This document shows positions 56,001 to 59,000 of a DNA stretch of 64,000 nt, piece after piece (positions within the stretch are counted from its first letter, which is position 1; each line of letters begins with the position of its first letter). This DNA comes from Escherichia coli (lineage in GTDB: Bacteria > Pseudomonadota > Gammaproteobacteria > Enterobacterales > Enterobacteriaceae), in the NCBI RefSeq assembly GCF_017348835.2, contig NZ_CP071375.1. One strand, given 5' to 3'. Position numbers: made by a program.

Positions 56001-59000
56001 TCAAATACGCGCGACGGCACCAGATAGTTGAGGAATACGCCGACGACATACACAACCAGTGTCGCCAGAATCCCGGCATACGGCACATGCTGACGACTCA
56101 TTTTCGCCATAAAACTCGGTGCGGAACCGCCCATCGCCATTGAGCGCAGAATACGTCCGGTGCAGTACAGACCTGAATTCAGGCTGGAGAGGGCAGCGGT
56201 CAGCACCACAATGTTCATAATGCTGCCGATATATGGCACACCCAGTTTAGAGAAAAACGTCACGAACGGACTTTGCCCCGCCTGATACGCGCTCCACGGC
56301 AATAACATAACCAGCAACACCACGGAGCCGACGTAAAACAGGCCAATACGCCAAATCACACTGTTAATCGCTTTAGGTACCATGGTCTGCGGATCTTTAC
56401 ATTCTCCGGCAGCTGTACCCACCATTTCAATGGAGGCAAAAGCAAACACTACGCCCTGAATCAACACCAGCGCAGGCAGCAAACCGTGGGGGAAGAAGCC
56501 GCCATTATCGGTGATTAAATGAAAGCCTGTGGTGTTGCCATCCAGCGGCTGACCACTACCGAGGAACACTGTACCTACGACCAAAAAGGTCACAATGGCG
56601 AGCACTTTAATAAGCGCAAACCAGAACTCCATCTCCGCAAACCATTTCACACCGATCATATTCATGGTGCCAACGATGGTAAGTGCAGCGAGCGCAAAGA
56701 CCCACTGCGGCACGCCGCCAAACGCACCCCAGTAATGCATATACAGAGCGACGGCGGTAATATCAACAATCCCCGTCATCGCCCAGTTGATGAAGTACAT
56801 CCAGCCAGCAACATAAGCGGCTTTCTCACCCAAAAACTCACGGGCATAAGAGACAAAACTGCCACTGGAAGGGCGGTGTAGCACCAGCTCACCCAATGCA
56901 CGCAGAATAAAAAACGAAAACAAGCCACAAATTAAATAAACCAGTGCCAGTGCTGGACCCGCCATTTGCAGTCGGGCTCCTGCACCTAAAAACAAGCCGG
57001 TGCCAATCGCGCCGCCAATGGCGATCATCTGTACCTGGCGATTGCCCATCGCTTTGTGATACCCCTCTTCGTGGGCATTAAGCCAGCGGCGTTTCGCGGC
57101 GTGTTGATCTGAAGTGTCGGTGTCGTGTTTACTCATTGCTCTCCCTGATTGCTTTAATGAAAAAGTCATATAAGTTGCCATGAACAATGTTTATTCATCC
57201 TGGCGATGATAGTTATCACCATTATTCTTTATGGGTATAAAACTATCGGCGCAGAATCCTACCTTTTATCGTGTAACGATGCAAAATAATCCCGCTATAC
57301 ATATGTGGGGATGAAGGCGGCGGCGACAAAATAGCAACCTGATGAAATTATGACGGAAACAACCACTATTAGTTTGATGATACCCGACTGCAGTCCAACT
57401 CTTTCGCCACTCGTTCGTCGCTCTGAAAGCCTGTGGTTGCAGTGGACACTGGTGTGGTTGGTCTTCGCTGTTTATCATTGAATAGTGAGGGGCTAGCACA
57501 TGACGGGTTTTAGGGGTAATACGCCAAATACCAATACAATTGCTGATTAGATGTGCCAGTTACCGACGTTACAGAAAGTGCCAAAAAATGTAAGAGGGAT
57601 GTCGGGTGATAAACGCGCTATTGCCCAACAGGAGTTTCTGGAATTAGTCCTGTTCCATGGTCATTACAACTCTTAAAACATTACTTCAATATAATTAATG
57701 TGTATATCATTCTCGATATTAATTTATGAAGTGAATTTGATATATTCCGAATTCTTAATTTACATTACTAATGTATGGGGCATAACGTTAAGATTGATAT
57801 GTGCAGATTAAGATATCAGGGTGGGGCGGTAGCGTTTACAGATATTAATCAATTGATGAGAATTATGTTAACTGCGTAATCATTTTCATCGGTTATTGAT
57901 ATTGAAGATAGATTAATAAAAATGCTGATAATTAATGTTAAGAAATAGAAATGGGAAACGTTGATAACTTGCTTTGATTTCATTTTCTATGAAGATGATG
58001 CCATCAATACTGTATAAAGTAAGAATGTTGAAAATCAAAGAGCGTTTGTGTTTTATCTGAAAGATATTATATCCAGGGGAAAGGATATGTCTTTAAGGAG
58101 AATGACATCTGGTGAATTAACATTGGCTAGATCGATTTTTGAGAATACAATTGATTATAGCAAGGTATGGATCCACAATGAAAAATATCTGCCTGGTCAA
58201 GGGGAAAGAACAGCGATGACCCCAAACGGGGAAATGTATTATCCTGATGCTGTTTATAGTTCAGATTATTCATCGCAAACAATGCCTGGTGATCGTGAAA
58301 CAGTAGCAGGTGCTTCTCACTTGTTTATTCATGAAATGATGCATGTTTGGCAATATCAGAAAGGGTATGCAGTTAAGTTGCGTGGTTTATTTTCCTGGGC
58401 GGCAAATTATCATTACGTTCTTAATTTACAGTCAATTTCTTCTTATTCCATGGAACAACAAGCATCTATAGTTGCTGATTATTGGCTATTGATTAACTAT
58501 GGACTGGTGGCTGATTTGGCAAATGTTAACTATGTAGGTGATACAACTGAATCAGTTAACACTCTATCGGAAAAATACAAAAAGGTGCTTAATTTATTTC
58601 CTGCGGGTGTCATATGAAGAGGTTCTTTTTGTTTTTCTTTTTGTCGGGATGCACTGTTGGTGATTATGTTCGCCCATTGTTACCCGGTAATGTATATTTA
58701 CAAGATGGACGGGTTTGTTCAAAACCAGACGATGGAGATATTATTTCAAATTATATTTTATATGAAGGTAAATATGGCAATGCAATAAAGCTGAAAAGAG
58801 TAACAGGTCAGTTCGATCCCGTATGTATTGACATAAGTGAGCTATCTCCAGATGTTATTTATATCGGGCAATATATGCTCTCCTCCGGAAGTAAAAAAGA
58901 ATACTATGGTTTTAGGATAATTAGATCCGGAGTACGTATTTTAAGACTTGATGATAACCATATCAAATAACAGATTAAAAATTTTATTAGTTTCATTAAT

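Follow-up and report, generated by a model that had tools for sequence, protein, structure and literature searches.

In the stretch of Escherichia coli DNA analysed here (64,000 nucleotides of contig NZ_CP071375.1, hereafter the window), two short genes lie together on the plus strand of an AT-rich segment (57500..59250; 33-37% GC vs ~50-53% in the flanks) that extends between ansP (55637-57187, minus strand) and a vgrG gene. The first gene (58087..58617) encodes a 176-amino-acid (aa) protein, which we annotate on the basis of its open reading frame (ORF), the RefSeq call, homology and a structural model as a stand-alone gluzincin metallopeptidase resembling Tpe effectors and the C-terminal domain of VgrG2b. 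The second gene (58614..58970) encodes a 118-aa lipoprotein, putatively a divergent member of the Tpi/PA0261/SARI_02726 immunity family, as indicated by the NF045617 profile, an iterated search and its cysteines. The ATG start codon of the effector gene at 58087 is preceded by an AGGGG Shine-Dalgarno-like run (positions -12 to -8), and the N-terminus of its product, MSLRRMTSGELTLARS, contains no hydrophobic signal segment. The HEMMH zinc-binding/catalytic motif occupies residues 82-86 (58330..58344; H82, E83 and H86), preceded by TAMTPNGEMYYPDAVY, and the codon of E123, the predicted third zinc ligand, lies at 58453..58455. The stop codon of the effector gene overlaps the start codon of the lipoprotein gene within an ATGA sequence (58614..58617), an arrangement through which the two genes may be translationally coupled. 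The lipoprotein starts with MKRFFLFFFLSGC and carries a lipobox (L10-S11-G12-C13; 58641..58652), whose Cys13 would be the lipidated residue, and two further cysteines, C35 and C71; since the residue at position +2 is Thr, there is no inner-membrane retention signal, and the protein is probably sorted to the outer membrane. The first-pass annotation of this DNA had already described the positions of both ORFs, the HEMMH motif, the missing export signal, the ATGA overlap, the lipoprotein with its LSGC lipobox and two further cysteines, and the AT-rich island adjoining vgrG, and our reading of the sequence agrees with it on each of these points.

The pair lies well beyond what chance would produce, given that both genes are called by RefSeq, that the effector has hundreds of homologs and that its four zinc-site residues are invariant; moreover, conservation across genera rules out chance ORFs or an annotation artefact. 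The RefSeq calls were made in E. coli PE164, whose chromosome (NZ_CP114128.1) is 100% identical to the window at the pair and over 25 kb, with 2 differences in the first 49 kb of the window; the window belongs to PE164 or to a strain nearly identical to it. The names given to the two products are 'type IV secretion protein Rhs' for the effector (WP_053883764.1) and 'hypothetical protein' for the lipoprotein (WP_047669218.1). The former name, by now widespread in Enterobacterales, is wrong, as the 176-aa protein has neither Rhs repeats nor any link to type IV secretion.

A phmmer search of the PDB sequences with the effector returned a single strong match, the effector domain of Pseudomonas aeruginosa VgrG2b (6H56; E 1.8e-20, query residues 4-138 against 6h56_A 99-233), and a profile of 25 homologs matched the same entry with E 2.1e-35 and found no other solved relatives. 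Structure prediction, which the first-pass annotation had proposed as a check, led to the same protein: the AlphaFold2 (AF2) model of the effector reached a predicted local distance difference test score (pLDDT) of 92 and a predicted template modelling score (pTM) of 0.89, and the only PDB entry found with this model by Foldseek was 6h56 (E 2e-9, probability 1.00, template modelling score 0.64; next match E >1). In the alignment to 6H56, residues H82, E83, H86 and E123 correspond to H935, E936, H939 and E983 of VgrG2b (numbering of PMC6899460), and all four are invariant across 25 diverse homologs. The effector is also 44% identical to SARI_02727 of Salmonella arizonae (E 1e-48), and its relatives, numbering 3128 representatives at 50% identity (E up to 1e-3), occur in three forms: stand-alone proteins of ~170-200 aa, N-terminally extended proteins, and domains fused to VgrG. 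Judged by sequence comparison and the predicted model, the E. coli effector is homologous to the VgrG2b C-terminal metallopeptidase domain, occurs as a stand-alone protein, and has the fold and all four zinc-site residues of that domain.

The first-pass annotation had called this protein DUF4157-like. The resemblance (…AMTPNGxxYF…HEMxHVWQ) is real, but it stays below threshold, and the E. coli protein is not a formal member of PF13699 (formerly DUF4157, now 'eCIS_core', after the extracellular contractile injection system, eCIS). Searching Pfam with the effector gave nothing significant, only DUF6782 at an independent E-value of 0.29 and no PF13699, while 14 of 25 homologs matched PF13699 at E 0.005-0.1 and none of the 25 at E <=0.001. 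What the E. coli effector shares with PF13699 proteins is a short zincin core in which a beta-strand motif is followed by HExxHxxQ, and relatives of VgrG2b have been described as 'frequently annotated as DUF4157' (PMC6899460). NCBIfam yielded no meaningful match to the effector; PADLOC matched neither the effector nor the lipoprotein, hence the pair is not a known anti-phage system.

For the lipoprotein, a jackhmmer search starting from the E. coli protein recovered 58 ORFs located downstream of effector relatives, SARI_02726 among them. A lipobox is present in 56 of these 58 homologs, and the only invariant residues in a 24-member alignment are C13, C35 and C71 (E. coli numbering), in line with the reported requirement of PA0261 for DsbA. 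The homologous lipoproteins pass NF045617 ('putative T6SS immunity periplasmic lipoprotein', where T6SS stands for type VI secretion system) at 51-99 bits, and DUF7480 matches 11 of 24. These comparisons support the assignment of the E. coli lipoprotein, as a divergent member, to the cognate immunity family NF045617/DUF7480. No solved structure for any member of this family was found in the PDB; AF2 prediction of a linker-fused effector-immunity protein, with a paired 40-sequence alignment, gave an all-beta mature immunity domain with a pLDDT of ~85.

The two genes are conserved together. We compared 80 loci encoding effector relatives, one genome per species, 64 of which encode stand-alone effectors; in 57 of these 64 loci from other genera, iterated search relates the following gene to that of the E. 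coli lipoprotein. This co-occurrence, and the invariance of H82, E83 and H86 noted above, bear out two expectations of the first-pass annotation. The effector stop codon overlaps the lipoprotein start codon in 41 of 58 pairs, including 23 with a 4-bp overlap like that of E. coli. Carrier E. coli have a single copy of the pair, on the chromosome; it occurs in 230 of 5426 complete genomes (~4%) and occupies the ansP-nhoA (rhsE) locus in every record inspected. Its closest counterpart outside E. coli is found in Citrobacter farmeri, where the effector is 67% and the lipoprotein 49% identical; faster divergence of an immunity protein than of its toxin is the usual pattern. In C. farmeri, the effector, the lipoprotein, a vgrG (74% identical), a DcrB/Eag gene and a prePAAR-PAAR-Rhs gene lie inside a T6SS cluster by tssM and tagF. 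The order effector-immunity-vgrG occurs in 11 of the fetched loci, among them S. arizonae Salmonella pathogenicity island 20 (SPI-20). The first-pass annotation had worried that effectors are usually encoded downstream of vgrG; the recurrence of the upstream order in S. arizonae, C. farmeri and other genera removes this objection. Elsewhere, the pair precedes an hcp-Tlde1 island in Atlantibacter, forms a free two-gene cassette adjoining an integrase fragment in Pantoea, and, as an effector/DUF7480 pair, ends a T6SS remnant (VipA and VipB, with or without TssK and a ClpV fragment) in Enterobacter hormaechei, which is another case of the cassette outliving its apparatus. Given these mixed contexts, the pair behaves as a small mobile cassette that lies often, but not always, beside spike or tube genes. 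Separately, C. farmeri carries a truncated vgrG (326 aa; 7000-7980 of the fetched locus) with an Ala/Gly-rich N-terminal extension immediately upstream of the effector gene, and the 82% identity of its product to residues 4-216 of the VgrG encoded in the window suggests past tandem vgrG modules. We also considered whether the E. coli pair once stood downstream of a since-lost vgrG, as in C. farmeri, and found no remnant of such a gene in positions 57100-58100.

The closest characterised relatives are T6SS effectors with their immunity proteins. The C-terminal domain of VgrG2b is a gluzincin that is toxic in the periplasm only, an HExxH mutant being non-toxic, and PA0261, a periplasmic protein encoded downstream of VgrG2b, neutralises it by binding and needs its signal peptide and DsbA to do so (PMC6899460). 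Tpe1/Tpi1 of Acinetobacter baylyi (ACIAD0053/0054) belong to the same family, and in 'many members of the Enterobacteriaceae' the peptidase was reported to be a putative cargo effector with the gene for a predicted lipoprotein behind it; one such lipoprotein, SARI_02726 of S. arizonae, fractionates with the outer membrane (PMC6899460). The SARI_02727/SARI_02726 pair was validated in 2026 by competition assays, periplasmic toxicity and partial rescue by the immunity protein (PMC12992299).

This Salmonella pair, located in SPI-20, resembles the E. coli pair in having a stand-alone effector (~180 aa) with HExxH plus E and no signal peptide, a lipoprotein gene of the same family that overlaps the effector gene, and a vgrG downstream on the same strand. 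The two lipoproteins, however, share only ~21% identity and differ in length (154 aa in Salmonella vs 118 aa), the E. coli one lying below the DUF7480 and NF045617 thresholds; moreover, the Salmonella pair is inside a complete T6SS cluster (TssC and TssK nearby), whereas the E. coli pair stands first in a satellite vgrG-Rhs island, in a strain whose T6SS-1 is degraded. VgrG2b and PA0261 share with the E. coli proteins the predicted fold and zinc site, and a periplasm-directed immunity protein with conserved cysteines encoded directly downstream, but the VgrG2b domain is covalently fused to the spike while the E. coli effector is a separate cargo protein, and PA0261, instead of being a lipoprotein, is soluble in the periplasm and has a type I signal peptide. 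Tpe1 is, like the E. coli effector, a stand-alone cargo metallopeptidase with an adjacent immunity gene, and its toxicity is periplasmic and depends on catalytic residues; a transmembrane helix holds Tpi1 in the inner membrane, in contrast to the lipid anchor predicted in E. coli. The first-pass annotation had recognised neither protein as characterised. This holds insofar as our literature search found no paper naming the E. coli pair, but the family itself has been known since 2019, when cargo versions with lipoprotein immunity were noted in Enterobacteriaceae; the E. coli pair is thus a new, misannotated member of a known family.

Collectively, sequence homology, the predicted fold and the conserved pairing support the idea, already put forward in the first-pass annotation, of a signal-less zincin acting as a T6SS-delivered periplasmic effector with a lipoprotein as its immunity protein. 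We consider it very probable that the pair belongs, as a cargo-type T6SS effector-immunity cassette, to the Tpe/Tpi family founded by the VgrG2b C-terminal metallopeptidase and PA0261. From the characterised homologs we infer a mechanism based on VgrG-mediated delivery, zinc-dependent periplasmic toxicity and neutralisation by the lipoprotein. The effector would ride a VgrG spike non-covalently, and a T6SS would shoot it into the periplasm of Gram-negative neighbours, where its zinc-dependent peptidase activity may disturb the envelope and cell division of the prey, leading to mid-cell blebbing and lysis. Sister cells would be protected by the lipoprotein, which would bind the toxin; after export by the Sec and Lol pathways it would probably sit in the outer membrane by its lipid anchor, and a C35-C71 disulfide probably stabilises it. 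As for the action of the toxin, the C-terminal domain of VgrG2b showed no peptidoglycan hydrolase activity, caused mid-cell blebbing and had no identified substrate, and in its presence MltC, LolB and RcsF were less membrane-associated in vitro (PMC6899460). Release of lipoproteins from membranes has been proposed, in which VgrG2b-type peptidases would cut envelope lipoproteins in the tether that joins their folded domain to the lipidated Cys (PMC6899460); we found no newer open-access paper defining the substrate of the family.

The genes downstream of the pair form an island in which a spike is encoded. The vgrG gene (59191..61185, plus strand; 664 aa; TIGR03361, 558 bits), 74% identical to its C. 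farmeri counterpart, starts 220 bp beyond the pair on the same strand and is the probable carrier. No terminator-like site was found between the pair and vgrG, so that co-transcription is possible; promoter-like sites are no commoner than in shuffled sequence. Next, on the same strand, come a DcrB/DUF1795 (Eag-type) gene for the putative chaperone of a PAAR-Rhs protein (61236..61688; RefSeq 'DcrB-related protein'), whose syntenic gene in C. farmeri matches PF08786, and the 5' remnant of a PAAR-Rhs toxin gene, now a pseudogene (61707..63074; identified by family search and in RefSeq). Relative to E. coli GF3-3, the window has lost 12.3 kb with a junction at 63065-63075, where the two flanks overlap by ~11 bp and where the Rhs remnant is fused to a 3' fragment of nhoA (63065-63475). 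The deletion removed the remainder of the Rhs gene, Imm8, orphan Rhs-CT/immunity cassettes, a GGDEF gene, a sulfatase gene, pptA and yddH; the GF3-3 island retains a full-length (frameshifted) Rhs gene, the Imm8 gene and orphan Rhs-CT/immunity cassettes.

Several observations weigh against a functional T6SS effector-immunity cassette. There is no evident adaptor gene dedicated to the small effector, and T6SS structural genes lie within 8 kb in only 10 of 47 long stand-alone loci from other genera (the query set did not include Hcp); furthermore, homologs of the effector exist in families that rarely have a T6SS (PMC6899460). The E. coli lipoprotein itself scores 33.8 bits against NF045617 (E 3e-8), below the cut-off of 43, and Pfam finds nothing in it, DUF7480 giving no match even at E up to 10. 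The fused effector-linker-immunity model (pTM 0.69) shows both domains with confidence but comes without predicted aligned error or interface metrics, and is only suggestive of a complex. Finally, the PE164 genome contains only two vgrG-like places, and the aspV T6SS-1 is inactivated in all three carrier genomes in which the site was located and inspected (PE164, GF3-3 and OZ197100).

A rival reading is that the cassette is of Tpe/Tpi origin but disarmed: in this lineage the T6SS would no longer work, the effector would be neutral or decaying, and selection would act on the lipoprotein as a defence against Tpe-type toxins of other Enterobacterales. We regard this as a serious possibility, albeit one that falls short of being probable. 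In PE164, the aspV T6SS-1 (NZ_CP114128.1 3,968,000-3,984,100) is reduced to tssF, tssG and an ImpA-family tssA together with a vgrG fragment; in GF3-3, a truncated tssF, tssG and tssA are left; in OZ197100, the locus is split by an IS1/IS26 resistance island with mer and antimicrobial resistance genes, tagK is truncated and tssM is frameshifted. Since the T6SS-1 core of PE164 is largely deleted and the island Rhs gene is truncated by the 12.3-kb deletion, current delivery of the effector is doubtful, and the cassette may no longer serve offensively in this strain. The effector alleles point in the same direction. In GF54 (NZ_CP172159.1 2126138-2127021), a stop codon replaces precisely the codon of the zinc ligand E123, and the lipoprotein ORF is undamaged; the truncated effector cluster matching this allele (P0012) has 87 member sequences, and further truncated clusters exist (P0015 and P0021). 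A different allele (P0008) lacks 12 aa, in frame, after residue 130. An effector-null, immunity-intact allele together with a degraded T6SS-1 supports the toxin-immunity relationship and suggests that at least some E. coli lineages carry the cassette as a relic or retain it for immunity, a view that the T6SS remnants beside the E. hormaechei pair would also fit. On the other hand, the window carries an uninterrupted effector ORF in which no catalytic residue is missing, and truncated clusters are a minority, most E. coli copies being full length (clusters P0001, 334 members, and P0003, 295 members); an intact toxin gene deprived of its delivery route would be expected to decay. Moreover, the argument from T6SS loss is based on three carrier genomes and, within each of them, on the aspV T6SS-1 site.

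A further, joint reading holds that the lipoprotein inhibits the toxin as a pseudo-substrate and that E. coli without a T6SS keeps the cassette purely for defence; we think this unlikely. The pseudo-substrate idea stems from the tether-clipping proposal combined with a conserved tether motif of the immunity lipoproteins: right after the lipidated Cys, most enterobacterial members have C-P-G-(P/x)-G-D-R, and the E. coli protein has C-T-V-G-D-Y. The C-T-V-G-D stretch is of low confidence in the fused AF2 model. If this reading were true, the pair could reveal the substrate of the family in the organism in which the candidates MltC, LolB and RcsF were found.

It is very improbable that the pair works independently of any T6SS, as a zincin with its lipoprotein inhibitor in an envelope or housekeeping protease module, or as eCIS-type DUF4157 cargo, with its position beside vgrG incidental. 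The weak PF13699 similarity of 14 of 25 homologs, the many stand-alone pairs away from T6SS structural genes and the homologs in T6SS-poor families mentioned above would fit such a role, but the effector without a signal peptide could not by itself meet a periplasmic lipoprotein, its closest characterised relatives are all T6SS effectors, the vgrG-Eag-PAAR-Rhs synteny is kept across genera, many relatives have the domain fused to VgrG, and no eCIS genes were found near the pair. Equally hard to credit is a primarily anti-eukaryotic effector, as first proposed for VgrG2b from its interaction with the gamma-tubulin ring complex and epithelial uptake: VgrG2b has been described as a trans-kingdom effector (PMC4453011, as cited in later work) and PE164 is a pig diarrhoea/blood isolate, but the existence of a dedicated periplasmic immunity lipoprotein that is conserved along with the effector speaks for bacteria as the target, and the stand-alone Salmonella homolog is an antibacterial toxin (PMC12992299).

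Three observations concern other parts of the window and of the PE164 chromosome. According to the PE164 annotation, paaC (window 2296-3041) is frameshifted and paaK (9256-10569) has an internal stop codon, hence phenylacetate degradation is probably inactive in this strain. Between ydcL and ydcO lies an IS200/IS605 insertion sequence element (window 34314-36021), in which tnpA is a pseudogene with an internal stop codon and the gene for the TnpB/InsQ RNA-guided endonuclease is intact. In PE164, the gene order of the ansP region runs in the K-12 direction and that of the clpB-glyA region in the opposite one, which indicates a large inversion relative to K-12.

The identification of the pair as a very probable Tpe/Tpi cassette corrects the misleading names 'type IV secretion protein Rhs' and 'hypothetical protein' in ~4% of complete E. 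coli genomes and would extend the set of E. coli effectors linked to the vgrG island of the rhsE locus by a periplasmic metallopeptidase of the Tpe type. It leaves the current understanding of T6SS biology unchanged. The pair would nonetheless offer a native E. coli system in which to look for the substrate of this toxin family and to obtain the structure of an immunity complex, and its occurrence with a degraded T6SS-1 and as effector-null, immunity-intact alleles illustrates how such cassettes may outlive the weapon that they once armed.

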